Positions 3,200-42,820 of a DNA stretch of 64,000 nucleotides are shown in pieces. Positions within the stretch are counted from its first letter, which is position 1, and each line of letters opens with the position of its first letter. Below the pieces are notes generated by a model. It was not told where the DNA came from, made no database searches, and saw only the letters and a program-made list of their open reading frames with translations. Origin of the DNA: Vicinamibacterales bacterium (GTDB lineage: Bacteria > Acidobacteriota > Vicinamibacteria > Vicinamibacterales > JAMQPK01); the NCBI GenBank assembly GCA_963738315.1, contig CAVTVT010000003.1, positions 1,466,595 to 1,530,594 of the forward strand. Reading direction: 5' to 3'. The translations under genes and the position numbers were made by a program.

Positions 3200-3225
3200 C
3201 GGTCCGGGACCGGTCTGCTGCCGGT

Positions 3226-3841: not shown

Positions 3842-3909
3842 GGCGGTTCCCTGAAAAAACAGGCGCAGGACCAGTGTAGCAGAGGGTCCGGGCGGGCCGC
3901 CCGTTCGCG

Positions 3910-4419: not shown

Positions 4420-4913
4420 AGCGGCCTCGCGTCCTTCCCTCTCGCGAGCTCCTCCCGCAGCATCTCCACCACGGCGCGGCGCTCGTCGTCGGAGAGCTGC
4501 GCCGCCGCGCGATACGCGCTGCCGGGCGAGAGCCCGAGATCCGCGGCCTCGCTCCAGTCCAGCTGAGAAGCGACCGCAGCAATCACGGCCAGCGACGCGT
4601 CATCGTCGATCCCGCCGGGGGATGCCGCCGTCGGCTCCGGGGCCGGGGAAATTGCCGCGGCCGCGGGCGGCGGCGCCGCGACGCGTGAGCTGCGCACTCC
4701 CACGGCGAGGCCCAACAGCACCATCGCCAGGGCCGCGCCTCCAGCTGCAATCCCCCAGAGGCTCAGCCAGCGTGGGTGAGCACGGCGCGGCGGCGCGGCC
4801 GCAACCGCCTCGCTCACCCGCCTCGAAAGGTGATCCCAGAAGAGCGGGGAGGGCTCCGGGACGTCGGAGTCGAGCAGGCGTTCGATGATTTCCCGGTCGG
4901 AGCGTTCCGTCAT
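4416..4913 (-). CDS. putative membrane anti-sigma factor
   Basis: ORF 4416..4913(-) overlaps the ECF sigma stop by 4 nt and has a single TM segment, WLSLWGIAAGGAALAMVLLGLAV. Both position and architecture are typical of an ECF anti-sigma factor. Confidence 0.55.
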   Translation of the reverse strand: MTERSDREIIERLLDSDVPEPSPLFWDHLSRRVSEAVAAAPPRRAHPRWLSLWGIAAGGAALAMVLLGLAVGVRSSRVAAPPPAAAAISPAPEPTAASPGGIDDDASLAVIAAVASQLDWSEAADLGLSPGSAYRAAAQLSDDERRAVVEMLREELARGKDARPL

Positions 4914-8168: not shown

Positions 8169-8317
8169 GCTGTGCTATTCTGCTGCCCTCTCCAGCAGGC
8201 AGCACCCAGCAGCCTGAAAGCGCGCCGCGCGCTCACCGCGCCGTCGCGACACTCCAGCCGAGCGCCACGCTCCCTCTCGAGCGCTCGCGGAGGTGTCTTC
8301 CGAGCGCTAGGAGCTTC

Positions 8318-12299: not shown

Positions 12300-13557
12300 G
12301 CGTGCCAGGGCGCCGCTGGCGGCGGCGCTGTTGGTCGTCCTCGGGCCGGTGCTCGCGGCACAGCGCGCGCCGGCGCCGGCCACCTACATTCGCTCGGTCC
12401 AGCGGCAGGTGCTGCCGGGATTGGTGCGCGTCACCATCGCTCTGGATCGCGAGGTCCCCTTCTATCAGACGCGCACGGACGCTCCACCCAGACTTGCGCT
12501 CGATTTGCAGGGGGCGCGGCCTATCGCGAAGCTCGCAAATGCGGTGCTGCGCTATCCGGCCGGCGTCGTCCGCGAATTGAGCGTGGGACGCGTCGACAAG
12601 CGCACCACGCTCATGCTCGATCTGCGGGGCGTGACCCGCTACAGCGTCTACACGCTGTACTAGCCGTATCGAGTCGTGGTCGACTGCGAGTGGACTCGAC
12701 AACCGGTTCCCGGGCGGCGATTCGCCGAAACGGAGCCCGGCGCAGAGCCGGCGCCGGAAGGCAGCCCCGCCGCCGAACGGGACGCCAACCGCCGCCCCCG
12801 CGTCCCCTTGCGCCGCAGATCAACGGGCGCGGCGCCTTCTCGGTGGCACGGCAGCTGGGATTGGGCGTGTCGCGCATCGTGATCGATGCGGGCCACGGCG
12901 GCCACGACCCGGGCGCGACGGCCTTCGGCGTCTCTGAGGCCGCGCTCGTGCTCGACATCGCCCTCAGGCTCGAGAAGCTGTTGCAGGAGCGGGAGGGTTT
13001 CGAGACGGTGCTCACTCGCCGCACCGACGAGTTCGTGCCGCTCGAGGAGCGGACGGCCATCGCCAATCGCGAATCGGCGCGACCTCTTCCTGTCCATTCA
13101 TGCCAATGCCAGCTCGAGGGCGTCTGCGCGCGGTGTCGAGACCTACTTCCTGAATTTCGCGCTCAACCGCGCGGCCGAAGCCGTCGCCGCCCGGGAGAAC
13201 GCCGCGTCGGGCCGCACCATGAGCAGCCTGCCGAGCATCATCAAGGCCATCACGCTCAACAGCAAGCTCGACGAATCGCGCGACTTCGCCGCGACGGTGC
13301 AGCAGTCGATGGTGCGCGGGCTGCGCGCCTACAAAGGCGCGGGCAAGGATCTCGGCGTGAAACAGGCCCCCTTCATGGTGCTCATCGGCGCCACGATGCC
13401 CAGCGTGCTCGCGGAAATTTCGTTCGTGACGAACCGGACGGATGCGCGCCTGCTCAAGAGCACGGCCTACCGGCAGAAGATCGCCGACGCCCTGCTCGCC
13501 GGCGTCGTGAAGTACCAGCAGGCGCTCAAGAAGGTCCAGACCGCCTCGCTGAAGTGA
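12283..13557 (+). pseudogene. N-acetylmuramoyl-L-alanine amidase with N-terminal AMIN domain; in-frame TAG plus at least 2 frameshifts as sequenced
   Basis: The AMIN-like N-terminus is in the tail of ORF 10798..12663 and ends ..YSVYTLY-TAG(12661)-PYRVVVD. The amidase_3 core VIDAGHGGHDPGA is in 12690..13595. DLFLSIHANAS..ETYFLN..SVLAEISFVTN is in 12886..13557, with a junction near 13076. Confidence 0.8.
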
Positions 13558-13822: not shown

Positions 13823-15349
13823 TTATGTCACCGGCGGTGACGGCGGCCAGTCGCGCGACGTGAACGCGAGCTCGGCGAGCGTTCGTACGCCGATACCGCT
13901 CGCCCCCTTCGGCAGGTACGGGCGCGGCTCCTCCAGCCACGCCGTGCCCGCCACGTCCATGTGGGCCCACGGCAGCCCGCCCGTGAACTCCTTGAGGAAC
14001 CAGGCGGCCGTGATCGCCCCGCCGTAGCGCCCGGCGGTGTTCACCATATCAGCCACCTCGCTCTTGAGCAGCTCGCGATAATCCTCGAACAGCGGCATGG
14101 GCCAGCACCGGTCCCCGGCGCGCTCCGCGACCGCCAGGACCTGCTCCACCCAGGGGTCCGGCGTGCCGAAGAGTCCGCTCGTGAGCTTTCCGAGGGCAAC
14201 GCTGATCGCCCCGGTGAGCGTCGCGATGTCGACCAGGTGGGTTGCGCCGAGCCGCTGCGCGTACCACAGCGCGTCCCCCAGGACGAGGCGGCCCTCCGCG
14301 TCGGTGTTGAGCACCTCGACGGTTCTTCCCGATGCGCTGGTGAGCACGTCGCCCGGACGAACGGCACGGCCGCTCGGCATGTTCTCGGCGATCGGCACGA
14401 CGCCGATCACCCGGATGGGAGGCTCGAGCAGCGCAATCGCGCGCATGGCTCCGATCACAGCCGCCCCGCCGGCCATGTCGTCCTTCATCCGCTCCATGCC
14501 CTCCGCCGGCTTGATCGAGATGCCGCCGGTATCGAAGGTGATGCCCTTGCCGACGAGGCCGAGCACCGGTCCGCCGCCAGCGGCCGTCCGCGGGCGGTAC
14601 TCGATAGCGACCAGCCTCGGCGGCTGGTCGCTCCCCTGCCCCACGCCGAGCAGCAGTCCCATGCCGAGCTCCGCCAGGCGCGGCTCATCGAGCACGTCCA
14701 CCTGGAGCCCCACCTCACGAGCGATTGCGGCCGCACGATCCGCGAAGATCGACGGAGTGAGGCGGTTTGCCGGCTCGTTCGCGAGCTGCCGCGCGACGTT
14801 GCAGCATTCCCCCAGCACCCGTCCGCGGGTGAGCGCCCTGTCCAGATCGTCCGAGCCGGCGTGCACGAAGACCGTCCAGGAGGGCGCCGGAAGAGCGGGC
14901 GGATCGACCGTCTTGTAGCGGCCGGCATCGAACTCGGAGAGCACGAGCCCCTCGGCGATGGCCTGGACCACATCAGGACGGCCCAGCCTGCCATCGGCCG
15001 CGATCGCCACGGCGGCGGCTTTTCGCTGCCTCGCAGACAGCCCGGCCGCGCTCGCCGCGCGCCTCGCCCGATCGATCGTGAAGGCCGGCTCCGGCCCTAA
15101 ACCAAGAACCGCGATCCGACGACACTTGTACTTGCGGTCGGTTATCGGGGCGGCGAAAATCTCGTACAGCTTCCCGCTGAACTCCTTCGACGCCGCCGCT
15201 CGAGCCGTTTCACCGCCGGTCGCCTCCGACCACCGCTCGAGCCCGGCCAGCGTGTCCTCGAAGCTCGGAACCACGACGAGGTCCGCCTCGAGCGCACGTG
15301 GATCGCCCGAGTAGAGGCTCATCGGCCTGGACGATGCATCGGTGGGCAT
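13823..15349 (-). CDS. pepA: leucyl aminopeptidase (M17)
   Basis: ORF 13823..15349(-) is intact and carries the M17 signature NTDAEGRLVLGDAL and VGKGITFDTGG. Confidence 0.92.
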   Translation of the reverse strand: MPTDASSRPMSLYSGDPRALEADLVVVPSFEDTLAGLERWSEATGGETARAAASKEFSGKLYEIFAAPITDRKYKCRRIAVLGLGPEPAFTIDRARRAASAAGLSARQRKAAAVAIAADGRLGRPDVVQAIAEGLVLSEFDAGRYKTVDPPALPAPSWTVFVHAGSDDLDRALTRGRVLGECCNVARQLANEPANRLTPSIFADRAAAIAREVGLQVDVLDEPRLAELGMGLLLGVGQGSDQPPRLVAIEYRPRTAAGGGPVLGLVGKGITFDTGGISIKPAEGMERMKDDMAGGAAVIGAMRAIALLEPPIRVIGVVPIAENMPSGRAVRPGDVLTSASGRTVEVLNTDAEGRLVLGDALWYAQRLGATHLVDIATLTGAISVALGKLTSGLFGTPDPWVEQVLAVAERAGDRCWPMPLFEDYRELLKSEVADMVNTAGRYGGAITAAWFLKEFTGGLPWAHMDVAGTAWLEEPRPYLPKGASGIGVRTLAELAFTSRDWPPSPPVT

Positions 15350-15393
15350 CGGGCGATTATATCGGCTTGCTCGCGTGTAACGCGGAGGTTACG

Positions 15394-15846
15394 ATGGCAG
15401 TGATGATCCCGAAACTCGTCGCCACGGCGCTCTCGAGCGCGGCGCTGATCGCCGCAGTTGCCGCCGCCCCGCGTGCGCAGACGGCCGATGCGAAGCCGAA
15501 GGCCGAACCGAAGCGTCCGCAGGTGACCCTCAAGGTCCAGCCGGCCTCCGGTATGGTGCCCGTGCGCATCTCGGGCGTGGCGGAGCTCCGCGGCGGCGCC
15601 GACGACTTCGAGGACTACTACTGCCCCACGATCGAATGGAGCTGGGGTGACGGCACCATCTCCGAGTCCTCGAACGACTGCGAGCCGTACGAAGCGGGCA
15701 AGAGCCAGATCAAGCGCCGCTATTCCATCACCCATCCGTACCGGGAGAGCGGCAGCTACCGAATCTCGTTCCGCATGAAGCAGAAAGACCGGGTCGTCGG
15801 CTCGGCCAATACGGTCGTTCAGCTCCTCGGTGGAGGACCGGACTAG
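15394..15846 (+). CDS. secreted hypothetical protein
   Basis: Within ORF 15298..15846(+). GGAGGT (15384-15389) precedes ATG at 15394, followed by the signal peptide MAVMIPKLVATALSSAALIAAVAAAP. The Cys-containing beta-rich body has no recognisable catalytic motif. Confidence 0.6.
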   Translation: MAVMIPKLVATALSSAALIAAVAAAPRAQTADAKPKAEPKRPQVTLKVQPASGMVPVRISGVAELRGGADDFEDYYCPTIEWSWGDGTISESSNDCEPYEAGKSQIKRRYSITHPYRESGSYRISFRMKQKDRVVGSANTVVQLLGGGPD

Positions 15847-16283
15847 TCGTTCTCCCGCACGCCCGGACCGGGCATCACCACGCACTCGGGAAACACGGCC
15901 GCTCCATGGCGGTCGAGGTGGAACGCTCGAATGGTGTCGTCGACCGGCGACACAATGACGTAAAGAAAATTCGCGCCTGCGGCTTCTTCCAGGTCCGATT
16001 GCGAGGGGACTGGCGCGCTCGCCGGGTGCGAATGGTACGCGCCAACTACCAGGAGCCCGTCGGCCCGCGCGGACCGGATCGCCGCGAAATGATCGGCCGG
16101 ATCGACACGGTAGCGGGTCGGCCCCTGTTCGACATTCCGCGCGCGTACCGCGCGCTCGATCGCCCGATCGCGCCCGAGCAGCAGCCCGCAGCACTCGTTC
16201 GGCGCCTCGTCGCGGGCGTGCGCCAGCATGGAGGCGACCGATGCGCCCGACAGGGTGATCGTGTTCTGCGGTTGGCCAGCCAC
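15843..16283 (-). CDS. MPN/JAMM-family metalloprotease-like protein
   Basis: ORF 15843..16283(-) has an upstream Glu (EAPNECCG) and the JAMM motif HSHPASAPVPSQSD. GGAGG lies 11 nt before the GTG start, and the gene begins 37 nt after the tyrA stop. Confidence 0.8.
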   Translation of the reverse strand: MAGQPQNTITLSGASVASMLAHARDEAPNECCGLLLGRDRAIERAVRARNVEQGPTRYRVDPADHFAAIRSARADGLLVVGAYHSHPASAPVPSQSDLEEAAGANFLYVIVSPVDDTIRAFHLDRHGAAVFPECVVMPGPGVREND

Positions 16284-16320
16284 GATGCTGTGCGCCTCCA
16301 GCCCGGCCGGCTGCGCGGCC

Positions 16321-17235
16321 CTATTTTCCGGCGAGCAGGGCCTCCCGCCATCGATGCGCGCCCTCGAAGACGCGCTCGATGGCGTCGCCCGACACGAGTC
16401 CGGTCCGCACTTCCTGGAGCAGCCGGATCAGCGCGTCGAGCGCGCCGCCGATCTCGTCGGGATTGGTCGCACAGACTTCCTTCCAGATGTCGGCAGGGCT
16501 CGAGGCGAGCCGCGTCGTATCCAGCAGACCGCGGCCCGTGAGCTCGAGCCCGTCACGTCCCGCGGCCTCGCCCACGACCTGCATCAGCGCGCTCGCCGTG
16601 AGCTGCGGGAGGTGGCTGATGAAGGCCAGCAGGTGGTCGTGCTCGGCAGGCGACAGAATTCTCGGGCGGGCGCCGAGCGCCGACGCAAATGCCTGCAGCT
16701 TCTCCAGCGCGGCACCGCCGGCAGCGCTCGCCGGCGTAAACAGCCACGGACGGCCCGCGAAGAGGTCCGCCCGGGCGAAGTCGATGCCGCCGCGCGCGCC
16801 GCCCCCGAGCGGATGGCCGCCGACGAAGGTGAACCGGCGCGGCAGGTCCGCCGCTGCCGCCGCGATGGCGCGCTTGGTGCTGCCGGTATCGGTGACCACC
16901 GCCGGTCCGGCGATGTTCCCGTCGAGGGCCGCGAGGAGCTCGAGATTCTGCTGAATGGGCGCGGCGAGAATGACCAGGTCCGCCTCGGCCAGGACGACCG
17001 GGTCGTCGGCCGCGACGTCTATCGCGTGGCGCACCATGGCCCGCTCGAGCACGTCCTTCCGATCGACGCCGATGACCAGCCCCGACGGCCAGGTCTCGCG
17101 GGCGGCGAGCGCGATCGAGCCGCCGATGAGTCCCAGGCCGATGATGCCGACCCGCTCGAAGATGGGCGGCTGGCCCGCAGGCCTCTCCGGCTGGATGACA
17201 CGGAGCGCCCGCCCGTCGAAGGGGCCGTCGGCCAC
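16321..17235 (-). CDS. tyrA: prephenate dehydrogenase
   Basis: Within ORF 16321..17637(-). It has the Rossmann motif VGIIGLGLIGGSIALA, the GGHPLGG motif and HLPQLTASAL. The in-frame GTG at 17235 overlaps the upstream stop; the longer Met-start extension would be antisense-overlapped with the DAHP synthase gene. Confidence 0.85.
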   Translation of the reverse strand: MADGPFDGRALRVIQPERPAGQPPIFERVGIIGLGLIGGSIALAARETWPSGLVIGVDRKDVLERAMVRHAIDVAADDPVVLAEADLVILAAPIQQNLELLAALDGNIAGPAVVTDTGSTKRAIAAAAADLPRRFTFVGGHPLGGGARGGIDFARADLFAGRPWLFTPASAAGGAALEKLQAFASALGARPRILSPAEHDHLLAFISHLPQLTASALMQVVGEAAGRDGLELTGRGLLDTTRLASSPADIWKEVCATNPDEIGGALDALIRLLQEVRTGLVSGDAIERVFEGAHRWREALLAGK

Positions 17236-18281
17236 TAGCGGCCCCAGCCGCGCTTGGCCACCGGTTCGACGCAGATGCTGCGCCCGATGGCGGGGGCGAT
17301 GATCCGGAGCTCCGCCATCACGCGGTCGAACTGCGCCGGGTACATCGACTGCGCTCCGTCGCTCAGCGCCTTGTCGGGATTGCAGTGCACTTCGACGATG
17401 ATCCCGTCCGCCCCTGCGGCCACCGACGCGCGGGCCATCGGCGCCACTTTGTTGCGCTTGCCCGTCGCGTGGCTCGGATCCGTGATGATCGGCAGATGGC
17501 TCAGCTTCTTGATCACCGGAATGGCCGAGATGTCGAGCGTATTCCGCGTGTAGCTCTCGAACGTCCGGATGCCGCGCTCGCACAGGATGACGTCGTTGTT
17601 GCCGCCGGCCAGGATGTACTCCGCCGAGAGCAGCCACTCCTCGATGGTCGCGGCAATGCCGCGCTTCAGCAGCACCGGCTTGCGCACCCGCCCGAGCTCG
17701 CGCAGCAGGGTGAAGTTCTGCATGTTCCGCGCGCCCACCTGGTAGATGTCCGCGTAGCGCCCGACCACGTCGATCTGGCTGACGTCCATGACCTCCGACA
17801 CGAGCTTCATCTGCTCGTGATCGGCCGCCTCGCGCAGCATGCGGAGCCCCTCCTCGCCGAGTCCCTGGAAGCTGTACGGCGAGCTGCGCGGCTTGAACGC
17901 GCCGCCGCGGAAGATCTTCGCGCCGGCCTTCTTCACGGCCGCGGCCGTCGTGAACACCTGCTCCTCGTTCTCCGCCGAACAGGGCCCCGCCATCACGATC
18001 ACCTCGTCCCCCCCGATGCGGACGTCGTCGATCGTGATCACGCTCCCTTCGGGCTTGAACGTCCGGCTCGCGAGCTTGTACGGCTCGGTGATGCGCAACA
18101 CTTCGTGCACTCCGTCCATCACCTCAATCAGGGCCGGGTCCACACGGTTCGCGCCGACCACGCCAAGTACGGTGCGATTCACGCCGGTCGATCGGTGCAC
18201 GTCCATGCCCTGCTCGACCAGGCTGGCGACCACCTTCTCGATCTGCGCCTCGGTCGCCCGTTCCTCCATTACGACCACCAT
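17235..18281 (-). CDS. aroF: 3-deoxy-7-phosphoheptulonate (DAHP) synthase, type I-beta with N-terminal regulatory domain
   Basis: Within ORF 17235..18317(-), starting at MVVVMEE. A ~70-aa ferredoxin-like N-domain is followed by the KDSA/DAHPS core GPCSAENEEQ..FRGGAFKPRSSPYSFQGLG..ITDPSH. Confidence 0.88.
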   Translation of the reverse strand: MVVVMEERATEAQIEKVVASLVEQGMDVHRSTGVNRTVLGVVGANRVDPALIEVMDGVHEVLRITEPYKLASRTFKPEGSVITIDDVRIGGDEVIVMAGPCSAENEEQVFTTAAAVKKAGAKIFRGGAFKPRSSPYSFQGLGEEGLRMLREAADHEQMKLVSEVMDVSQIDVVGRYADIYQVGARNMQNFTLLRELGRVRKPVLLKRGIAATIEEWLLSAEYILAGGNNDVILCERGIRTFESYTRNTLDISAIPVIKKLSHLPIITDPSHATGKRNKVAPMARASVAAGADGIIVEVHCNPDKALSDGAQSMYPAQFDRVMAELRIIAPAIGRSICVEPVAKRGWGR

Positions 18282-18282
18282 G

Positions 18283-18606
18283 CTAGCTATCCTCCCCGTT
18301 GCCGATGACACGCGCATCCACGATGCCGCTCGGGCGCGCCGACCCGCGTTCGATGCGTCGCGCCTCGTCGATAATCCGCTCGAACACTCTGACGATGGCC
18401 TCGCCGGCGAGCGGGCTGCCGGTGAGGCGCCCGTGCGATTGCACGTGCCGCAGCACCTCCGCTTCGCGATCGGGCTGGTACACGTCCAGGCCGAGATCGT
18501 GCTTCATCCGGCCGATCTCCAGCGCGCATCTCGCCCGCTCGGTGAGCAGCTCCACGAGCCGCTCGTCAAGCTGATCGATCCGATGTCTGAGCTCGTCGAT
18601 TGTCAT
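18283..18606 (-). CDS. chorismate mutase (AroQ class)
   Basis: ORF 18283..18627(-) reads [35 protein letters not shown], typical of a CM type 2 helix bundle. Its start lies within the trpA 3' end. Confidence 0.85.
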   Translation of the reverse strand: MTIDELRHRIDQLDERLVELLTERARCALEIGRMKHDLGLDVYQPDREAEVLRHVQSHGRLTGSPLAGEAIVRVFERIIDEARRIERGSARPSGIVDARVIGNGEDS

Positions 18607-19420
18607 GGGTGCCGTCGGCCGGCTCACCCTTGAGCCAGCGGACGTAAGATTCTACCCTTTCAACGAGATCCGGGCTGGCTCCAGCCTCGGCGATCACCCC
18701 CACCAGTCCGCTGCCGACCACCGCCGCATCGGCCCAGGCGCCGATTCGGCGCACGTGCTCCGGACGCGAGATGCCGAAGCCCAGGGCCAGCGGCAGCGTC
18801 GTCTCGGCCCGGATGCGCCGCGCCAGGCGCTCGGCGCCTTCAGCCACCTCGCTCCGCACGCCCGTCACACCGAGCCGCGAGATCCCGTACAAGAACCCGC
18901 TGGCGAGGCGAACCGCCTGGCGCAGCCGCGCGTCGGTGGTCGTCGGGCTCAGGAGGAAGATCATGTCCAGGCCGCGGGCCGCGAGCGCATCCCGGAAGCC
19001 GGATGCCTCCTCGACCGGCAGATCGAGCACGAGCACACCGTCCACGCCCGCCTCCGCGGCCCGGTCGGCGAAGCGCTCGAGCCCCATCCGCAGGATCGGA
19101 TTGACGTAGCTGAACAGCACGATCGGGGCGCGCACGCCGTCTCTCACCGCGGCCACGACGTCCAGCACACGCCTGGCCGTGGCGCCTCCAGCCAGCGCCC
19201 GTTCGGTGGCGCGCTGAATCACCGGACCGTCAGCCACCGGCTCCGAGAAGGGAATGCCGAGCTCGATCACGTCCGCTCCGGCCCGATCGAGCGCCTTCAC
19301 GATCGCTCCTGTCCGCTCGAGATCGGGATCGCCGCCGGTGACGTAGGTCACCAGGCCCGGAGCGTGCCGCGCGCGAATGAGCTCGAAGGCCGGCGCAATC
19401 CTAGACGCCACGCGGCACAT
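18566..19420 (-). CDS. trpA: tryptophan synthase alpha chain
   Basis: ORF 18566..19420(-) contains [17 protein letters not shown] and GFGIS motifs. Confidence 0.93.
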
Positions 19421-20636
19421 CCTCGATTATCGAGAGCCGGCGGGCGACGCTCTCGACGTCCTTGTCGCCCCGGCCGGACAGATTCACGAGCACTACGGCG
19501 GTTGGACCGAGCTCCGGGCCCAGCCGGCAGGCGTGCGCCACGGCATGGGCCGATTCCAGCGCGGGGATGATCCCCTCCAGGCGGGCGAGATCCCCGAACG
19601 CCTTCAACGCCGCATCGTCGTCGATCCAGGTGTACTCCGCGCGTCCGAGATCGCGCAGCCAGGCGTGCTCCGGGCCGACGCCGGCGTAATCGAGGCCCGC
19701 CGATATCGAATGCGTCAGCTCGATGTTGCCGTCGGCGTCCTGCAGGATGTAGGTGCGGGTGCCCTGCAGCACGCCCGCCACGCCCCCCGCGAATCGCGCC
19801 GCGTGGCGTCCCGGCGCCAGCGCTTCGCCTCCCGCTTCCACGCCAATCAGGCGCACGTCGGCGTCCGGGATGAAGGCGTCGAAGATGCCGAGGGCGTTGC
19901 TGCCGCCGCCGACGCAGGCGACGACGGCGTCGGGCAGGCGGCCTGCGGCCTCCAGTATCTGCGCGCGCGCCTCGCGGCCGATCACCGACTGGAATTCGCG
20001 CACCATGAGCGGATAGGGGTGAGGCCCCAGCACCGAACCGAGGAGGTAGTACGTGTCGGTGACGTTGGTCACCCAGTCGCGCATCGCCTCGTTTATCGCA
20101 TCCTTGAGGGTTCTGCTGCCCGCCTCCACCCGGCGCACGTTCGCCCCGAGCAGGCGCATGCGGACCACATTGAGCGCCTGCCGCTCCATGTCCTCGGCGC
20201 CCATGTACACGTCGCAGGCGAGTCCGAGCAGCGCGGCGGCCGTGGCGGTGGCCACGCCGTGCTGACCGGCGCCGGTCTCGGCGACGATGCGCCGCTTGCC
20301 CATGCGCCGGGCGAGCAGCGCCTGGCCGAGTGCGTTGTTGATCTTGTGAGCGCCTGTATGGGCCAGGTCCTCGCGCTTCAGGAAAATTCGCGCGGCGGGA
20401 CGCGCCAGCGCCGCCTGGAGACGCACGGCTTCGTACAGCGCCGTCGGGCGGCCGACGAAGTGCTTCAACAGGCGATCGAGCTCCGCCGTGAATGTGCCGT
20501 CGGCGCGGGCCTCGAGATAGGCGGCCTCGAGCTCGTCCACCGGCCCCACCAGCGTCTCCGGGACGAAGGCGCCGCCATATTCGCCGTAATACCCGCGAGC
20601 GCCCGGGTCGCGGCGGCCGAATCGCGCGTCAGCCAT
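19401..20636 (-). CDS. trpB: tryptophan synthase beta chain
   Basis: ORF 19401..20636(-) has the PLP lysine region [13 protein letters not shown] and GGGSNALG. Confidence 0.95.
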
Positions 20637-21221
20637 GCAATGCCTCGAAGAACGATCTCATCAGGCGCTCCTCCTTGATGCCGGGCGACGACTCGACACC
20701 CGACGAGACGTCGACGCCGTAGGGGCGCACCGTCTCCACCGCGCGCGCCACGTTGTCCGGACGAAGACCCCCGGAAAGGATGCTGCGCCGCCGTCCGGCG
20801 ATGGCACGGGCGAGCTCCCAGTCCACCACTCGCCCCGTCCCGCCGCGCCGTATCGGGTCGTGCGCGTCGAGAAGGATCGTCATGGCGGCGTCGTAGTCGT
20901 CGATCGCGGCCTCGTTGCCGCCGAGGCCGAACGCCTTGATGGCCGGTCGCGCCAGCGAGCGACAGTAGGCGGGCGACTCCGCGCCGTGCAGCTGCGCGGC
21001 GCTCAGGCCTGCGACGTCCATGGCCTGCCTCACGTCGCTCTCCGGCTGGTCGACGAACACGCCGATCCTGGTCAGGCCTTCCGGCATGCGGCTGACGATC
21101 GCCGCCGCCCGTTCCGGCGGGATGTACCTCGGGCTCCCCGGCCAGAAGATGAACCCGACCGCCGATGCGCCGAGCTCGGCCGCCAGTTCGGCGTCCCGGA
21201 GCCTCGTGATCCCGCAGACCT

Positions 21222-21243
<22 letters not shown>
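20629..21243 (-). CDS. trpF: phosphoribosylanthranilate isomerase
   Basis: ORF 20629..21243(-) contains [26 protein letters not shown]. Confidence 0.9.
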
Positions 21244-22039
<796 letters not shown>

Positions 22040-22043
<4 letters not shown>

Positions 22044-23071
22044 TCCACGGCTCCCCTGGAGGCGGCGATCATCCCATCGAGCAGGCGCAACGCCCTGCCG
22101 CTGTCGATCACGCCGGCGGCGGCTTCGATGCCCTCGAGCACCGATCCCGTGCTGCCCGCGATGAACAACGAGGCGCCGGCGTTCAACAGCACGACATCGC
22201 GCCTCGGGCCCCGCTCGCCGCCCAAGACGGACCGCACCATCGCCGCATTCTCGGCGGCGTCGCCGCCGCGCAGATCGGAGAGCCTGCTCTTCGGCATCCC
22301 GAATTCCGCGGGGTGCACGTAGAACGTGGAGATCGTGCCGTCGCGCAGCTCGGACACTTTCGTGTACCCGGTCGTCGATATCTCGTCGATGCCGTCAGCC
22401 CCGTGCACGACCCAGGCGCGATCGCTGCCGAGCAGCAGCAGGGCGCGCGCCACGAGATCGGTGAGCTCCGCGCGCGGCACACCGACGAGCTGCCGGCGCG
22501 CGCCCGCCGGATTCGTCATCGGCCCCAGCAGGTTGAAGGCCGTCGGGACACCCAGCTCGCGGCGAACGGGAAGCGCGTGCTTCATGGATGGGTGGAACGT
22601 GGGCGCGAAGAAGAATGCCATCCCCACACCCGCGAGCGACGCCTCCACCCGCGCCGGCGACGCGCCCACATCGACGCCCATCGCTTCGTACACGTCCGCG
22701 CTGCCACACCGGCTCGAGACCGACCGATTGCCGTGTTTCGCGACCCGCACGCCCGCCCCGGCCACGACGACGGCCGCCGCCGAGGAGATGTTGAACGTGT
22801 GGGATCGGTCGCCGCCGGTCCCGCAGGTGTCGAACACATCGTCGAACGTCCGCGTCAGACGCACGGCGTTGGCCCTCATCGTGCGGGCCAGTCCCGCGAG
22901 CTCGGCCGGCCGCTCGCCCTTCATGGTGAGGCCGACCAGGAGCGCCGAAATCTGAGCGGGCGTCGCCCCGCCGCTCATGATGGCCTCCATGGCGCACGCC
23001 GACTCCTCGAGCGTGAGGTTCTCCCGCCGCATCAGCTTCTCGAGCACGCGCGGGAGCGCAGGCGCACTCAC
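22040..23071 (-). CDS. trpD: anthranilate phosphoribosyltransferase
   Basis: ORF 22040..23071(-) contains DTCGTGGDRSHTFNISSAAA and KHGNRSVSS. Confidence 0.93.
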
Positions 23072-23646
23072 GATGGCGATCCCAGCGCGAGGAAGTTGCG
23101 CAGGAGGTGCATGCCCTCCCGGGTCATGATCGACTCGGGATGGAACTGCACGCCGTGAATCGGCAGCTCCCGATGGCGCAGCGCCATCACCGTCCTCTCC
23201 TCTTCGGTCTCGGCGGAAATCTCGAGCGCCGGCGGAAACTGCTGCGAATCGACGACGAGCGAGTGATAGCGGGCGACCGAGAACGGGCTGGCCAGACCGG
23301 CGAACACGCCGCGGCCGTCATGACGGATGCTGGACGTCTTGCCGTGCATCGGGACGCGGGCGCGGACGACGGCGCCGCCAAAGGCCATCCCGATGGCCTG
23401 GTGTCCCAGACAGACGCCCAAGAGCGGGATGCGAGGCCCGAACGTCTTGATCACGTCGAGTGTGATGCCGGCCTGCTCCGGACGCCCCGGTCCCGGCGAG
23501 ATCACGATCCGGGCGGGCGCGAGGCCGGCAATCTCGGCGAGCGTTATCTGGTCGTTCCGGCGCACCAGCGGCGCGGCGCCCAGCTCGCCCAGGTACTGGA
23601 CGAGGTTGTACGTGAACGAATCGTAATTGTCGATGACCAGCACCAT
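23068..23646 (-). CDS. trpG: anthranilate synthase component II (glutamine amidotransferase)
   Basis: ORF 23068..23646(-) reads MVLVIDNYDSFTYNLVQYL, with the catalytic Cys in GVCLGHQ and HGVQFHPES. Confidence 0.93.
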   Translation of the reverse strand: MVLVIDNYDSFTYNLVQYLGELGAAPLVRRNDQITLAEIAGLAPARIVISPGPGRPEQAGITLDVIKTFGPRIPLLGVCLGHQAIGMAFGGAVVRARVPMHGKTSSIRHDGRGVFAGLASPFSVARYHSLVVDSQQFPPALEISAETEEERTVMALRHRELPIHGVQFHPESIMTREGMHLLRNFLALGSPS

Positions 23647-25128
23647 CTAGAGCCCCTGCTCCGCCAGCTCGAGCGCGCGTACGAGCGCCCGCGCCTTGTC
23701 CCTCGTCTCCTGATACTCCGCCGACGGATTCGAATCCGCGACGATGCCCGCGCCCGCCTGGACCATCGCGCGGCGCCCGGCGATGACGACCGTGCGGATG
23801 GTGATGCAGAAATCGAGATTGCCGGCGAAGTCCAGATAGCCGACGGCGCCGGCATAGATGCCCCGCCGATCCGGCTCGAGCTCGGCGATGATCTCCATGG
23901 CGCGCACCTTCGGGGCGCCGGAGACGGTGCCGGCCGGAAAGCACGCCACGAGCGCGTCCAGGCGGTCCCGATCCTCGGCCAGCCGGCCCTCCACCACTGA
24001 TACCAGGTGCATGACATGGGAGTACCGCTCGAGCGCCATGAAGGTCGACACCCTCACGGTGCCGAACTGCGACACGCGCCCCAGATCGTTGCGGCCGAGA
24101 TCGACCAGCATCACGTGCTCCGAGCGCTCCTTCTCGTTCCGCTTCAGCTCCTCGCCGAGCCGCAGGTCCTCATCTTCCGTGCCGCCCCTCGGCCGCGTAC
24201 CGGCGATGGGGTGCGTCTGCGCCACGCCACCCTCGACGCGCACCAGCATCTCGGGCGAGGATCCCACGATCGCCAGGGGCCCCATGCGGAGGTAGTACAT
24301 GTACGGCGACGGATTGACGTGCCGCAGCGCCCGGTACACGGTGAACGAGTCGGCCGAGATCTCCGCCTCGAAGCGCTGCGAGAGCACCACCTGATAGATG
24401 TCGCCGGCGGCGATGTATTCCTTCGCGGTCCTGACCATCTCCTCGAAACGTTCTTTGCTCAGATTCGACCGCACGTCGACCGGCGGCCCCGGATCCGGCC
24501 GGGGGTGCGAGAAGTCGCGCCGAAGCTCGCGCTCCAGGAATTCGATCTTCGTGCACGCGAATCGGTACAGATCCTCGAGGTCGTCGTCCGGAGTGATGCG
24601 CGCGTTCGCGATGATGAGAATCCGGTGCTGCACGTGGTCGAAGGCCAGCACCGTGTCGAAGATCATGAACGCGGCGTCGTCCCGCAGGGCCGGATCGCGC
24701 GGCGCCGACTCGTCCTGCAGCGGCACCGGCTCGAACCATGCCGCGGTGTCGTAGCCGAGATAGCCGACGGCGCCTCCCGTGAACCGCGGCAGCTCCGCGA
24801 CGAACGGCGAGCGGAAGTCGGCCATCATCTTCCGCAGGACGCCGATGAAGGGTTCGCCGCTCTCGGCCACGATGCCCGTGCGCTCCACGATCGTCCTGCC
24901 GTCGCGCGACCGGAGGACCACGAAGGGGTCCTTGCCGAGGAAGGAATACCGTCCGACGTGTTCTCCGCCCTCGACGCTCTCCAGGAGAAACGCATAGTCG
25001 GAGTGCTCGGCGATCCGCAGGAACGCCGACACCGGCGTCAGCAGATCGGCGACCAGCTCCTTCACGACCGGCACGAACGTGCTGCGCCCGGCAAGCTCGC
25101 TGAACGTCTCGAACGACGTGAGTTTCAT
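23647..25128 (-). CDS. trpE: anthranilate synthase component I
   Basis: Within ORF 23647..25665(-), starting at MKLTSFETF (ATG 25128, an ATGA overlap with the aroD/E stop). Contains LSQRFE..GTVSGAPKVRAMEII..GAVGYLDFAGNLDFCITIRT. Confidence 0.93.
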   Translation of the reverse strand: MKLTSFETFSELAGRSTFVPVVKELVADLLTPVSAFLRIAEHSDYAFLLESVEGGEHVGRYSFLGKDPFVVLRSRDGRTIVERTGIVAESGEPFIGVLRKMMADFRSPFVAELPRFTGGAVGYLGYDTAAWFEPVPLQDESAPRDPALRDDAAFMIFDTVLAFDHVQHRILIIANARITPDDDLEDLYRFACTKIEFLERELRRDFSHPRPDPGPPVDVRSNLSKERFEEMVRTAKEYIAAGDIYQVVLSQRFEAEISADSFTVYRALRHVNPSPYMYYLRMGPLAIVGSSPEMLVRVEGGVAQTHPIAGTRPRGGTEDEDLRLGEELKRNEKERSEHVMLVDLGRNDLGRVSQFGTVRVSTFMALERYSHVMHLVSVVEGRLAEDRDRLDALVACFPAGTVSGAPKVRAMEIIAELEPDRRGIYAGAVGYLDFAGNLDFCITIRTVVIAGRRAMVQAGAGIVADSNPSAEYQETRDKARALVRALELAEQGL

Positions 25129-26582
25129 GACATGTGCCCCTCGTCCGACATCGCGCGCAGACGGGCGAGCGCCGCCTCGCGCATGACACCCTCGGGTGGA
25201 CGGCGGCCGATCCACCAGTCGGACTGCTCCTCGGCCTGCGCCACGAGCATGTCCAGGCCGCCGATCGTCTCGAGCCCGGCGGCCGCGGCCTCCCTGAGAA
25301 ACCGGGTGATCGGCGGGTTGTAGACCAGGTCGTACACGATGCGGCCGTCGAAGGCGCCCGCCCCGAAAGGCGTCTCGTCGCAGTCGGGATAGGTGCCCGC
25401 CGGGGTGGCATTCACGAGCAGGTCCCAGCTCTTGGCCGGGATCGGCAGGTGCGTCGGCTTTCGGCCGATCGACGCGGCCACGGCGGCCGCCTGCTCCGCC
25501 CGCCTCGAGTAGATGCTGACCTCCGCCCCGGCCGATGCCAGCGCGACGGCGACCGCCCGCCCGGCCCCTCCGGCGCCGAGCAGGGCGGCGCGCGCACCGC
25601 GCAGCTGGAGCCGATCGCGCAGCGGCGCCAGAAATCCGCTCACGTCGGTGTTGCGGCCCAGCCACTTCGTCTGGCGGCGCTTGAGCGTGTTGACCGCCCC
25701 GACCTTGGTGCTCGTCTCGTCGGCCGCGTCGACGCGCTGGAAGAGATCCACCTTGTACGGAATCGTGACGCTGGCTCCCCGCATGCGCAGCGCGTTCGCG
25801 AATTCCAGGAAGTCATCGGCGCTCGCCGCCGCCAGCGGCACGTACACGGCGTCCACCCCGGCCGCACGGAACGCGGCGTTGTGCATCGCCGGAGACACCG
25901 AGTGGCCGAGCGGCAGCCCGACGACGCCGTAGATGGCGGTGCGGTCGGTCACGTCGCGAAACCGGAACTCCTCGACCATCCGCGACGCCGGTATCTGTCC
26001 AGGCGCATGCCGGTCGCCCGCGTAGGACCACGCGGACCCGAAATGCGCTGCGAGGATCCGTGTGGGCAGCCCCGCCTCCCCCATTCCAACCAGCACCGTC
26101 CGGCACGCGTCGTCTCGCACGTCGAGCAGGCCCAGATTGTCCCAGAGGGTTCGGGCCATCACGGCCACCTTGACGACTTCCGCGCCGGACGCACGCATCG
26201 CCCGCACGCGCGCCGCGAGATCGCCGGGGACCCCGTCGAAATCGTGCATCGAGAGCACGATGCGCCGGCCGCCGGTCGTCTCCACGAGCGGGGCGAACGC
26301 GGCCTTGAACTCGATGTCGACGTACTCCGCACCCTGCTGAAGCGCCGACGACAGAATGGCCAGCCGTTCGGCTTCCGACCCCTCGAAACCTCCCCCTTCC
26401 CACTTGGGCCTGCACGTCACGATCACCGGGATCCGGCGCCCCTCGAGCGCCCCCGCCGGGTCGGGGTCACGCACCGAGTCGAGGCGGAGCTCCACCAGAT
26501 CGGCGCCCGTGACAGCGTCGCGGCGCTGCCTGAGCTCGGCCATGGTGGGTGCGGCGATCGTGACGCACAAGAGCGGCGGCAT
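25125..26582 (-). CDS. bifunctional 3-dehydroquinate dehydratase (type I) / shikimate 5-dehydrogenase
   Basis: ORF 25125..26582(-). The N-terminal half LCVTIAAPT..VELRLDS..VIVTCRP..VVKVAVMA is a type I DHQase. The C-terminal half GHSVSPAMHNAAF..NTDVSGF..LLGAGGAGRAVA is AroE. Confidence 0.9.
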   Translation of the reverse strand: MPPLLCVTIAAPTMAELRQRRDAVTGADLVELRLDSVRDPDPAGALEGRRIPVIVTCRPKWEGGGFEGSEAERLAILSSALQQGAEYVDIEFKAAFAPLVETTGGRRIVLSMHDFDGVPGDLAARVRAMRASGAEVVKVAVMARTLWDNLGLLDVRDDACRTVLVGMGEAGLPTRILAAHFGSAWSYAGDRHAPGQIPASRMVEEFRFRDVTDRTAIYGVVGLPLGHSVSPAMHNAAFRAAGVDAVYVPLAAASADDFLEFANALRMRGASVTIPYKVDLFQRVDAADETSTKVGAVNTLKRRQTKWLGRNTDVSGFLAPLRDRLQLRGARAALLGAGGAGRAVAVALASAGAEVSIYSRRAEQAAAVAASIGRKPTHLPIPAKSWDLLVNATPAGTYPDCDETPFGAGAFDGRIVYDLVYNPPITRFLREAAAAGLETIGGLDMLVAQAEEQSDWWIGRRPPEGVMREAALARLRAMSDEGHMS

Positions 26583-26617
26583 AAAAAAAGCCCCTTCAAC
26601 CGTCCGGCTGAAGAGGC
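26583..26617 (-). terminator. intrinsic terminator of the aromatic-operon leader
   Basis: On the minus strand, GCCUCUUCAGCC (26617-26606) pairs with GGUUGAAGGGGC (26601-26590) around a GGAC loop. This is followed by U7 (26589-26583), which runs into the aroD/E ATG. Confidence 0.8.
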
Positions 26618-26644
26618 TGTGTCTGGCTCCCGAATGTCGTCGGA

Positions 26645-26764
26645 TCAGGCCAAGGCAGACGCCCCTTCAGTCCGGGCGTAGTACCACCAGCCAAACGCGA
26701 ACGTACGCTCAGGGGCCGCTTGGGCGGTCGGGGCGATATCCGGCGTAATGGCGGCTGACGTCAT
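26645..26764 (-). CDS. aromatic-operon leader peptide (39 aa, not in ORF track)
   Basis: Runs from ATG 26764 to TGA 26647-26645 and encodes MTSAAITPDIAPTAQAAPERTFAFGWWYYARTEGASALA. Codons 22-29 are F-A-F-G-W-W-Y-Y. It sits between a promoter and a terminator/antiterminator pair directly upstream of the aro/trp/tyr operon. Confidence 0.7.
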   Translation of the reverse strand: MTSAAITPDIAPTAQAAPERTFAFGWWYYARTEGASALA

Positions 26765-26786
26765 GTCGTGGCGCAAAGAGACACGG

Positions 26787-26816
26787 ACGATAGCAGGAAC
26801 TCTTTGATTCTGTCAA
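26787..26816 (-). promoter_or_regulatory. promoter candidate of the aromatic supraoperon leader
   Basis: On the minus strand, TTGACA (26816-26811), an 18-nt spacer ending in TGc (extended -10), then TATCGT (26792-26787). It lies about 20 nt upstream of the leader ATG. Confidence 0.5.
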
Positions 26817-26861
26817 GGATTGTGCGACCATGGGAAGCGAGTATCCGTTAACTCCAAATCC

Positions 26862-28697
26862 ATGAAGAGACTGCTGTTCACGCTGGGAGCGAGCGTCGCC
26901 CTGCTGGTCGCGTCGCTGCCGGCGGCCGCTCCCTACTATCCGGTGGACGAGATCAAGCCGGGCACCGAAGCGACGGGCCTGACGGTCTGGCAGGGCGACA
27001 AGATCGAGGAGTTCAAGGTCCACATCATCGGGGTGCTGAGAAACGTGATCGGTCCCCGCCGCGATCTCATTCTGGCGAAGCTCGAAGGGGGGCCGCTCGC
27101 CGATACCGGGGTCATCGCGGGCATGAGCGGAAGCCCGGTCTACATCGATGGCCGCCTGGCCGGCGCGGTTTCGTACTCGCTGGGGGCGTTCTCGAAGGAA
27201 CCCCTGGCCGGCATCACGCCGATCGGCGAGATGATCGACGCGGCGAGGCTCGACTCGCCGCGGCCGCCGATGGGCGAGCGCGCCCGGCTCGAAGTGCCGG
27301 TCACCCGGGAGAGCACCAGCGCCGCGCTTCGCGCCGCGCTCTCCTGGATGCGGCCGTTCGCCGAGCGGCCGGGCGATGTCAGGCTCCTGAGCCCGATGAG
27401 CGGCGTCGATGGACAGGTCGCGACGCTGCTTCGGCCAATCTCGACGCCGCTGATGTTGGGCGGTTTCGCTGCGGACGTGACCGACCTGCTGAGCGGCGCG
27501 TTCCGCGACGCCGGCTTCACGCCGATGGCCGGTCCCGCCGGGGCGGCTGACACCCCCGCGGTGTCGTCTCCGCTGAAGCCGGGCGATGCTGTCGGGGTCA
27601 ACCTGCTGAGCGGCGATTTCCAGGTGGGCGCGACAGGCACCGTCACCGAGGTGGCCGGAAACCGTGTATACGCGTTCGGACATCCCTTCTTCAATCTCGG
27701 CCCTATTCAGTTTCCGATGACGCGCGCGTACGTGCACACGCTGCTGCCGAGCCTGACCGCGTCGATGAAGATCGCGACCACGGGGGAGCTGATTGGCACG
27801 GTGTCGCAGGACCGGGCCACGACAATCGCGGGGACGCTGGGCACCGGGCCGGCGATGATCCCGGTCCGGCTGTCGCTGCAGTCGGATCGCGGCTTCAAGA
27901 AGGAGTTCGAGTTCCAGGTCGTCAAGGATCAGACCCTGACGCCCCTCTTCACCTATGCCGCGGTGCTCAGCACGCTCGGCTCCTACGAACGTGAGACGGG
28001 GGCGGCCAGCTTCACCGTCCGCGGGAAGCTGCTCGTCAAGTCGCACAGCGACGTCCAGATCGAAGATCTGTTCACCGGCGATCGCGCAGCCCTCAGCGCC
28101 TCGGCCTCGGTGATGGCCCCGCTCAGTTTTCTCGTGGGCAACGACTTCGAGCCGATCGACATTCAGGGAGTGGAGCTCGCGATCGAGTCGACCGAGCAGC
28201 CGCGGACCGCCACCATCGAGCGTGTCTGGGTCGACGCGGTCCGCGCCAAGGCGGGCCAGACCGTCCCGCTGAAAGTGCTCATGCGCACGTACCGCGGAGA
28301 CGAGGTCGTCCGGACCGTTCCGATCGAGATACCCTCGAACGCGAGCGGCCCGCTCCAGGTGATGGTGTCGGACGGCGCCCGGCTCGCGCAGTGGGAGCGC
28401 CGGGAAGTGCGCCAGCCGTCCGAGCCGCGCAGCGTACCGCAGATCATCCGGGCCCTGAACACGGCCCGCAAGAACAACCGGCTCTACGTCCGGCTGCTGG
28501 CGCCCGACGCGGGCGCCGTCGTGAGCGGCGAGCCGCTGTCGGCCCTCCCGCCGTCCGTACTGGGCGTGCTCGAAGCCGACCGCACCACCGGAGACTTCGT
28601 GCCGCTGCGCAGCGCCACGCTGGGCGAGTGGGATCTGCCGAGCGAGTACGCCGTCGTCGGATCGCGCACGCTCACGCTGTCGCTGGAAGCCAACTAG
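26862..28697 (+). CDS. SpoIVB-like S55 serine peptidase family protein, secreted
   Basis: Within ORF 26820..28697(+), starting at MKRLLFTLGASVALLVASLPAAA (signal peptide). It has the S55-type active-site context GVIAGMSGSPVYIDGRLAGAVS and a large C-terminal extension. Confidence 0.75.
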   Translation: MKRLLFTLGASVALLVASLPAAAPYYPVDEIKPGTEATGLTVWQGDKIEEFKVHIIGVLRNVIGPRRDLILAKLEGGPLADTGVIAGMSGSPVYIDGRLAGAVSYSLGAFSKEPLAGITPIGEMIDAARLDSPRPPMGERARLEVPVTRESTSAALRAALSWMRPFAERPGDVRLLSPMSGVDGQVATLLRPISTPLMLGGFAADVTDLLSGAFRDAGFTPMAGPAGAADTPAVSSPLKPGDAVGVNLLSGDFQVGATGTVTEVAGNRVYAFGHPFFNLGPIQFPMTRAYVHTLLPSLTASMKIATTGELIGTVSQDRATTIAGTLGTGPAMIPVRLSLQSDRGFKKEFEFQVVKDQTLTPLFTYAAVLSTLGSYERETGAASFTVRGKLLVKSHSDVQIEDLFTGDRAALSASASVMAPLSFLVGNDFEPIDIQGVELAIESTEQPRTATIERVWVDAVRAKAGQTVPLKVLMRTYRGDEVVRTVPIEIPSNASGPLQVMVSDGARLAQWERREVRQPSEPRSVPQIIRALNTARKNNRLYVRLLAPDAGAVVSGEPLSALPPSVLGVLEADRTTGDFVPLRSATLGEWDLPSEYAVVGSRTLTLSLEAN

Positions 28698-42803: not shown

Positions 42804-42820
42804 GGTACAATACGCTGTTC

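Follow-up and report, generated by a model that had tools for sequence, protein, structure and literature searches.

A predicted eleven-gene aromatic amino acid operon behind a candidate Trp/Tyr leader-peptide attenuator in Vicinamibacterales

A 64,000-nucleotide (nt) stretch of a Vicinamibacterales genome (contig CAVTVT010000003.1, positions 1,466,595 to 1,530,594; hereafter the window) carries twelve minus-strand genes between its positions 15843 and 26582, eleven of which serve aromatic amino acid biosynthesis and are predicted to form one operon behind a leader-peptide attenuator. An earlier note on this DNA, made from the letters alone, had read all twelve genes as a single supraoperon of unusual order. 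We recomputed the open reading frames (ORFs) and their junctions and assigned the window proteins to families by Pfam and NCBIfam profile searches; the G+C content of the window is about 69% and spurious ORFs are plentiful. Pfam and NCBIfam support the expected family for each of the twelve genes, so that every identity proposed in that note is upheld. The order is aroD·E-trpE-G-D-C-F-B-A-aroQ (chorismate mutase, CM)-DAHP synthase (DAHPS)-tyrA, then a JAMM gene, and it includes the complete set of seven trp genes, contiguous in the order E-G-D-C-F-B-A. The eleven aromatic genes are as follows.

25125-26582, minus strand: aroD·aroE fusion, type I 3-dehydroquinate (DHQ) dehydratase plus shikimate dehydrogenase (SDH), 485 aa (DHquinase_I PF01487, Shikimate_dh_N PF08501 and SDH_C PF18317)
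23647-25128, minus strand: trpE, anthranilate synthase component I, with the LLESX10S motif (PF00425 and PF04715; TIGR00564 above cutoff)
23068-23646, minus strand: trpG, glutamine amidotransferase (PF00117, E 7e-59)
22040-23071, minus strand: trpD, anthranilate phosphoribosyltransferase (PF00591 and PF02885)
21222-22043, minus strand: trpC, indole-3-glycerol phosphate synthase (PF00218, E 2.4e-85)
20629-21243, minus strand: trpF, phosphoribosylanthranilate (PRA) isomerase (PF00697)
19401-20636, minus strand: trpB, tryptophan synthase beta subunit (PF00291; TIGR00263, 597 bits)
18566-19420, minus strand: trpA, tryptophan synthase alpha subunit (PF00290)
18283-18606, minus strand: AroQ-class chorismate mutase, monofunctional, 107 aa (CM_2 PF01817, E 1.3e-22)
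17235-18281, minus strand: type Iβ DAHP synthase with an N-terminal ferredoxin-like (FXD) regulatory domain (DAHP_snth_FXD PF18152, residues 13-78; DAHP_synth_1 PF00793, residues 95-335)
16321-17235, minus strand: tyrA, prephenate/arogenate dehydrogenase, GTG start (PDH_N PF02153 and PDH_C PF20463)

The genes are packed without intergenic room. The start of trpE overlaps the end of aroDE by 4 nt (ATGA), trpG abuts trpE with a gap of 0 nt, and overlaps of 4, 4, 22, 8 and 20 nt follow at trpG-trpD, trpD-trpC, trpC-trpF, trpF-trpB and trpB-trpA. With start codons set by homology, trpA and CM overlap by 41 nt and 1 nt lies between the CM stop and the DAHPS start, while the GTG start of tyrA shares 1 nt with the DAHPS stop. 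Every junction that had been described was reproduced, including the 41-nt trpA/CM overlap and the near-abutment of CM and DAHPS, and so was the gap before the last gene, recomputed as +37 nt from tyrA to JAMM. For the eleven aromatic genes the gaps range from -41 to +1 nt on a single strand, a packing far beyond chance. The CM start is the ATG at 18606 (MTIDELR…), identical to the start called in L082, one of the related loci introduced below, and the DAHPS start at ATG 18281 (MVVVMEERA…) agrees with relatives; NCBIfam alignments to TyrA begin at residue 25-28. The conserved core of TrpA stops at YVRWLK, and it is a non-conserved tail of about 20 aa that overlaps the CM start (alignment A2). 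A frameshift behind the 41-nt overlap was ruled out, the TrpA core being intact and the tail of about 20 aa being found in L082 too. Overlapping and abutting stop and start codons of this kind would couple translation along the operon.

Several of the enzymes could be placed more closely. The AroD·E fusion scores above the cutoff of TIGR00507 and reaches 130 bits with TIGR01093, slightly under its 139.3-bit cutoff; membership in the Chlamydia-type equivalog NF006802 was excluded, the score of 150 bits being under the cutoff of 598. Its full-length match in the PDB is the Arabidopsis DHQ-SDH 2GPT (E 3.6e-73, residues 2-464), a chloroplast enzyme that is the best full-length structure match of the bacterial protein, and this sequence likeness may be relevant to how the bifunctional enzyme of plants arose. 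The AroD and AroE domains share one frame in all relatives, and fused homologues number thousands in metagenomes; a lookup of the exact AroD·E protein of the window gave no record. In one Vicinamibacterales relative, L007 (1410-4532), no stop codon ends the aroD·E ORF, which continues in frame, via a linker of about 70 aa rich in Arg and Gly, into trpE; the alternatives are a tri-functional AroD-AroE-TrpE fusion and a sequencing error. Homology searches also upheld the families proposed for CM (CM_2), DAHPS (FXD plus DAHP_synth_1) and TyrA (PDH_N plus PDH_C). DAHPS reaches 492 bits with NF006421 (cutoff 335) and matches the Thermotoga maritima DAH7P synthase 1RZM/3PG9 (3PG9 is listed under the same sequence) over its full length, the N-terminal ferredoxin-like domain included (E 7e-108). 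Tyr and Phe allosterically inhibit the Thermotoga enzyme. From such family knowledge, the DAHPS of the window is expected to be inhibited by Tyr/Phe through its FXD domain, and TrpE, in which the LLES motif is present, by Trp.

Relatives were collected by a DAHPS-based scan of species-representative genomes, and the window proteins were mapped onto 80 retrieved loci. The nine related genome loci are L001-L007, L081 and L082; DAHPS identity to L001-L007 is 76-81%, which places the window in Vicinamibacterales/Vicinamibacteria within Acidobacteriota, and L081 and L082 are long Vicinamibacterales contigs with independent gene calls that carry the same twelve genes as the window. Synteny, which had been put forward as a check on the cluster, came out in its favour: the order aroD·E-trpEGDCFBA-CM-DAHPS-tyrA occurs in every Vicinamibacteria locus (9/9 related genome loci), with intergenic distances mostly from -16 to +50 nt. 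Besides, a metagenome scan by the terminator motif described below returned 120 contigs, in 99 of which the detectable genes follow this order from its start, interrupted by contig ends only; three of these 99 extend to tyrA. Since the order is conserved in nine loci and the 99 metagenome contigs agree with it for as far as they extend, the arrangement is typical of the lineage and not peculiar to the genome of the window. The order is therefore unusual when set against model organisms, as had been claimed, but standard within Vicinamibacteria, and its 3' half is common to Terriglobia/Bryobacterales.

In Terriglobia, Acidobacteriaceae and Bryobacterales we observed trpCFBA-CM-DAHPS-tyrA only, among unrelated flanking genes (free-standing seven-gene clusters L009-L057, e.g. 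L057 5989-11917 and L024 6324-11853), and the DAHPS of Terriglobia/Bryobacterales is of the same type, with 63-70% identity. Neither trpEGD nor aroD·E was found within 10 kb upstream of this seven-gene cluster. Shorter or altered versions occur on a Calditrichaceae contig (trpBA-CM-DAHPS-tyrA) and on a Bacillota contig (trpDCFBA-DAHPS-DAHPS-tyrA).

The region upstream of the first gene contains all the elements of a putative attenuator.

26787-26816, minus strand: sigma-70-like promoter, TTGACA-N18-TATCGT, the sole promoter-like site in 15000-27500
26645-26764, minus strand: leader peptide ORF of 39 codons, MTSAAITPDIAPTAQAAPERTFAFGWWYYARTEGASALA*, read from the sequence and with homologues in all related loci
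26678-26701, minus strand: candidate regulatory codon block TTC GCG TTT GGC TGG TGG TAC TAC (F A F G W W Y Y), in which the Tyr-flanked Trp run is conserved
26661-26674, minus strand: antiterminator strand (region 2), CGGACTGAAGGGGC, within the leader ORF near its 3' end; on folding it pairs with the terminator 5' arm
26583-26618, minus strand: intrinsic terminator with a 13-bp stem (7 of 13 pairs G-C), a GGAC loop and a 7-T run abutting the aroDE ATG (terminator scan; fold of the full leader)

Promoters and terminators were scanned over 15000-27500, the former by strict sigma-70-type consensus only. The leader terminator is the sole strong terminator in this range, and the consensus scan returned no promoter-like site and no comparable terminator inside the cluster. 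Other minus-strand terminator-like matches have stems of 5-6 bp, and the total of 7 found against 3.5 ± 2.3 expected is near chance; weak 5-6-bp hairpins at 20405 and 22192 lie inside coding sequence, at background rate. In L081 and L082 the promoters have the same hexamers and the same spacing as in the window. The eleven aromatic genes are hence on the same strand, with minimal gaps, without internal terminators and in conserved order, which are the sequence marks of one operon. Internal promoters or terminators splitting the cluster, which would have told against the unit, were not found above chance in the sigma-70 consensus and hairpin scans, and the claim of a shared promoter and leader stands as far as one promoter-like site and one strong terminator, located in the leader, can carry it; a single transcript is what the sequence predicts.

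The same data bear on a different architecture, in which internal promoters within coding regions would drive sub-operons (CM-DAHPS-tyrA or trpCFBA-CM-DAHPS-tyrA) independently of the leader. The free-standing trpCFBA-CM-DAHPS-tyrA cluster of Terriglobia/Bryobacterales, which has no Trp-rich leader, implies that the 3' half is able to work alone; DAHP synthase is required even when Trp is plentiful; the strict sigma-70 consensus is all that our promoter scan recognises; and the B. subtilis supraoperon, with its several promoters, is a precedent (PMC1173090). However, the scan showed no promoter-like site inside the cluster, the stop/start overlaps leave no intergenic room for promoters, and gene order and tight spacing are conserved. 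Such promoters would in any case operate alongside attenuation of the full-length transcript and would not exclude it. We consider independently driven sub-operons unlikely.

The leader ORF is rich in aromatic codons, with six aromatic residues in eight consecutive positions (P about 2e-5 at the operon's aromatic content of 5.6%); the gene calls of L081 include the leader as a gene of 44 aa. A Trp run with Tyr or Phe codons beside it occurs in each of the nine genome loci. Leader statistics were drawn from 106 distinct leaders from genomes and metagenomes: 2-4 Trp are present in 106/106, partly by selection, and at least three Trp in 81/106. Tyr lies within three residues of the Trp run in 101/106 distinct leaders (95%), while Tyr makes up about 1.8% of the operon's proteins. 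Phe is that close to the Trp run in 27/106 leaders and occurs within the last 32 residues in 92/106. Trp and Tyr are combined in the leader sub-families YWWWY, AWRWYW, AWWYW, YAWRYW and FGWWYY, the last being that of the window. The leader ATG lies 9 nt past the -10 hexamer in L081 and L082 and 22 nt past it in the window, and the leader peptide mRNA of L081/L082 may be leaderless or nearly so.

A known TRAP site consists of about 11 (G/U)AG repeats with 2-3 nt spacers. The 218-nt leader has 2 (G/U)AG triplets, with a longest chain of 1, and TRAP-type control was rejected for want of a repeat array; the claim of a leader peptide in the place of TRAP therefore holds. A whole-window Rfam scan returned no known leader, T-box or riboswitch, and two tRNAs only. 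Before trpC in Terriglobia/Bryobacterales we found no convincing Trp-rich leader, which indicates that the attenuator is not common to the seven-gene version. In an unclassified member of Acidobacteriota, L033 (4010-11020), a YWYW leader (MIGGFRGNYWYWRG…) directly precedes trpE-trpG-…-trpCFBA-DAHPS; aroD·E is missing there, which points to its insertion between attenuator and trpE within the Vicinamibacteria lineage.

Folding of the leader gave two alternative structures. Without the 3' arm of the terminator, pairing of region 2 with the terminator 5' arm is the minimum-free-energy fold, and with the 3' arm the terminator forms. Conservation of these pairings was followed in an alignment of seven Vicinamibacteria leaders (A1) with slid-partner controls. 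Over the 7 loci, 95.6% of cells are paired for the terminator, with compensatory changes at 2 pairs, and 83% for the antiterminator, with one CG<->GC compensatory swap; both are above the slid-partner controls. In 88/111 distinct attenuators the region 2 motif G[AG]AG[AG]GGC was found. The geometry is conserved as well: the median distances are 9 nt between the last TGG and region 2, 43 nt between region 2 and the terminator, and 11 nt between the terminator and the first ATG downstream of it. In the window, region 2 starts 3 nt past the last Tyr codon and 9-12 nt past the Trp codons, and it ends 13 nt before the UGA. The leader accordingly holds clustered end-product codons, a terminator before the first gene and a mutually exclusive, suitably placed antiterminator, which together are the sequence hallmarks of a leader-peptide attenuator.

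The 3' arm of the terminator contains the Shine-Dalgarno (SD)-like GAAGGGG (26591-26597). In most loci, GAAGGGG, GAAGAGG or GGAGAGG lies in this arm, 8-12 nt upstream of the aroDE start. To judge from its sequence and position, the arm probably doubles as the aroDE ribosome-binding site, in which case the switch would act on transcription and translation alike.

We put at roughly three in four the probability that the eleven genes are one aromatic amino acid operon, read from a single promoter (at about 26787-26816) under the control of a classical ribosome-mediated attenuator. By analogy with the trp attenuator of E. coli, readthrough would respond to tRNA charging. When charged tRNA-Trp or tRNA-Tyr (perhaps also tRNA-Phe in the sub-clade of the window) is scarce, a ribosome would stall on the Trp and Tyr codons of the leader and leave region 2 free, the antiterminator would form and RNA polymerase would enter the operon; antiterminator formation would also expose the GAAGGGG ribosome-binding site in the terminator 3' arm. 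When aromatic amino acids are abundant, the ribosome would reach the UGA, 13 nt past region 2, and cover region 2, and the terminator would form.

A further step, which we take tentatively and at a little short of even odds, is that this one attenuator integrates the charging of two aromatic tRNAs (three in the sub-clade of the window; Trp, Tyr and Phe) and switches both transcription and translation initiation of the eleven-gene operon. The Trp and Tyr content of the leader matches that of the operon, which holds trp genes and tyrA but no pheA, although this is a correlation only. The attenuator may instead sense Trp alone, as an ordinary trp leader placed before a larger operon, with Tyr and Phe codons that are incidental or reflect constraints on RNA or peptide. 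The Trp run is universal (2-4 W in every leader, in part through selection), Phe stands beside it in just 27 leaders, and the Tyr codons are close to region 2; besides, Tyr supply has no effect on the aroR leader of C. glutamicum in spite of its Tyr codon (PMC11802643). Yet the recurrence of Tyr next to the Trp run, in 101 leaders and several sub-families, contrasts with its low frequency in the operon's proteins, and the presence of tyrA and CM beside the trp genes would make Tyr sensing functionally sensible. Sensing of Trp alone is a credible reading, if a doubtful one.

Several points weigh against the proposed eleven-gene operon and its attenuator. The single transcript is a prediction from sequence, and a sigma-70 consensus scan may miss internal promoters like those of the B. 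subtilis supraoperon. Covariation from 7 related sequences lends the pairings moderate support, to which the metagenome set, picked by an exact terminator pattern, adds no terminator covariation evidence. Only 3 nt separate the last Tyr codon from region 2 (7 nt from the continuous helix of region 2), and stalling of a ribosome at this codon may hide part of the antiterminator; no SD sequence is evident for the leader ORF. Indel errors in the sequence are possible, given the frame breaks in recG, ftsK and rnj that are described below. Finally, conserved codons do not prove a response, as aroR of C. glutamicum illustrates: its leader (F-Y-F) responds to Phe and not to Tyr (PMC11802643).

The last of the twelve genes differs from the others in several respects.

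15843-16283, minus strand: JAMM/MPN+ metalloprotease, stand-alone Prok-JAB (PF14464; PDB matches 2KKS and 5LDA)

The catalytic motif E…HxHx7Sx2D is intact in its translation (NECCG … HSHPASAPVPSQSD), where it takes the form E…HSHPx7Sx2D. A true twelve-gene operon, in which JAMM would be integral and have a function in aromatic biosynthesis, would agree with its position on the same strand 37 nt past tyrA, with no minus-strand terminator-like site between; it adjoins tyrA in L007, L081 and L082 and also in L187, and all Vicinamibacteria loci of sufficient length have it in the same region downstream. On the other hand, the tyrA-JAMM gap varies from 24 to 313 nt across the window, L007, L081 and L082, against mostly less than 50 nt within the aromatic block, and in L001, L003, L004 and L005 (4 of 9 relatives) the two genes are 1.5-4.7 kb apart, with other genes between. 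JAMM is absent from the Terriglobia/Bryobacterales version of the cluster, no ubiquitin-like or E1-like partner gene was found near it, and JAMM proteases are not known to have a role in the aromatic pathway. An integral role of this kind is improbable; JAMM is a syntenic neighbour that may be reached by readthrough, and it is unlikely to belong to the operon functionally. The twelve-gene unit of the earlier note hence holds for the eleven aromatic genes and fails at JAMM, whose spacing is variable and which is separated by inserted genes in 4/9 relatives. Read by eye from N-terminal sequences, these insertions look like genes for CoA-transferase subunits and thiolase in L001 (11870-16542) and L004 (12316-14917) and acetoacetyl-CoA synthetase in L003 (12539-14512), and the tyrA-JAMM junction appears to be an insertion hotspot for ketone-body/acetoacetate-like genes.

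Upstream, the cluster is bounded by a 279-nt divergent intergenic region followed by a peptidase S55 gene, and downstream by a convergent gene ending at 15846; the flanks in L081 and L082 are as in the window, with peptidase S55 divergent on the upstream side and, downstream, a small gene in convergent orientation plus pepA. These surroundings bear on whether the cluster could be a specialised and redundant supraoperon supplying a secondary metabolite pathway and not a housekeeping unit, as for the Nostoc/Anabaena trp/aro cluster. Redundant trp/aro/tyrA clusters are known (PMC1173090), but the flanking genes here are peptidase S55, JAMM and pepA, with no biosynthetic tailoring genes, and the secondary-metabolite reading was rejected on this gene content. 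In addition, no second copy of any cluster gene lies within the window, the arrangement is universal in the lineage, and a leader that reads tRNA charging would fit amino acid supply. We regard such a specialised function as very improbable.

Elsewhere in the window, aroC was recovered in the def-fmt cluster as proposed (38753-39964, plus strand): it overlaps def by 4 nt, which is translational coupling, and is followed by fmt and rsmB. It heads a row of aroC-def-fmt-rsmB and a gene for a PASTA-domain protein (38753-43543, plus strand), an unusual home for chorismate synthase. Likewise, the claimed lack of aroA, aroB, aroK and pheA agrees with our scan of about 45 other window ORFs, small ORFs being covered in part, which returned none of them.

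Three genes outside the cluster have their domains spread over different frames. For recG (1073-4582, minus strand), the wedge domain is in the ORF 2879-4582, DEAD in 1194-2921 and Helicase_C in 1073-1750, in different overlapping frames. For RNase J (8165-9984, plus strand), Lactamase_B is in 8165-9430 and RMMBL and RNase_J_C are in 9394-9984, and for ftsK (10798-12663, plus strand), 10798-12663 holds FtsK_alpha and 11198-12580 the motor and gamma domains, the frames differing in both. These breaks suggest assembly indel errors or pseudogenes. The aromatic operon is free of such frame breaks.

If the proposed control is true, a multivalent aromatic attenuator without an Rfam family would be conserved across a dominant soil lineage. 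The eleven-gene unit brings together entry into the shikimate pathway, two steps from the middle of that pathway, the branch point at chorismate and the full Trp and Tyr branches, and the predicted regulatory logic in Vicinamibacteria, an abundant and mostly uncultured soil group, would be one switch over DAHPS, CM and both branches. Leader codons (Trp plus Tyr in 95% of leaders) can be set against operon content, which makes these loci a clean natural test case of multivalent attenuation, and the conserved terminator motif is a marker that pulls such loci from metagenomes and could seed an RNA family. As to the evolution of the supraoperon, a trpCFBA-CM-DAHPS-tyrA core is common across Acidobacteriota, and in Vicinamibacteria aroD·E stands between attenuator and trpE.

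Aro/trp supraoperons are on record from Bacillus, Desulfovibrio and Nostoc, as is a mixed aromatic leader from Corynebacterium (aroR); our literature searches found no paper on trp/aro operons of Vicinamibacteria/Acidobacteria, although an earlier description is possible. The supraoperon of B. subtilis, aroF-aroB-aroH-trpEDCFBA-hisC-tyrA-aroE, similarly places the whole trp set among aro genes, with a chorismate mutase and tyrA, on one strand and under transcription attenuation in a 5' leader (PMC1173090). The resemblance and the differences in order and regulator noted earlier are both confirmed, and the Vicinamibacterales unit departs from the Bacillus type on both counts by which membership was judged, TRAP site and gene order. 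B. subtilis has aroF/aroB/aroH and aroE (EPSP synthase) where the Vicinamibacterales unit has aroD·E and DAHPS; trpG is outside and hisC present in the former, while trpG is inside and hisC absent in the latter, whose aro genes lie downstream of the attenuator. TRAP acts there, whereas a leader peptide (with 2 (G/U)AG triplets in the leader) is found here, and several promoters there contrast with one predicted here.

In D. vulgaris the order is aroA'-aroB'-aroQ·pheA-aroF-tyrA, then trpEGDCFBA, with a predicted attenuator (PMC1173090). The aro and tyr genes thus come before trp, unlike in the Vicinamibacterales unit, where trp is central and CM-DAHPS-tyrA follow; Desulfovibrio has an alternative DHQ route, pheA and EPSP synthase in place of a canonical type Iβ-FXD DAHPS and the aroD·E fusion without pheA. 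In the supraoperon of Nostoc/Anabaena, tyrA, DAHP synthase and most trp genes are likewise clustered (PMC1173090), but it duplicates dispersed housekeeping genes and lacks trpC, whereas the Vicinamibacterales cluster has a predicted tRNA-charging attenuator and no sign of redundancy. Closer in phylogeny, the Terriglobia/Bryobacterales cluster shares the seven 3' genes, their order and the DAHPS type, and differs in having neither aroD·E and trpEGD within 10 kb upstream nor a Trp-rich leader, and in its unrelated flanks.

As for the leader, E. coli trpL/pheL and C. glutamicum trpL/aroR also consist of a short ORF with tandem aromatic codons, followed by alternative terminator/antiterminator hairpins. 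Leader-peptide attenuation of trp, pheA and aroF is known, and in C. glutamicum the Phe-Tyr-Phe leader aroR precedes the DAHPS gene aroF (PMC11802643). Unlike these, the Vicinamibacterales leader mixes Trp and Tyr (and Phe in a sub-clade) and would govern common-pathway, Trp and Tyr genes together; it has no Rfam match, and its terminator 3' arm probably serves as the ribosome-binding site of the first gene. Compared with the supraoperons described so far, the Vicinamibacterales unit differs in the genes that it contains (type Iβ-FXD DAHPS, free AroQ and the aroD·E fusion, with no pheA, hisC, aroB or EPSP synthase), its gene order (aroDE at the head, trp central, CM-DAHPS-tyrA at the end), its mixed Trp/Tyr(/Phe) leader and a terminator that overlaps the SD sequence.

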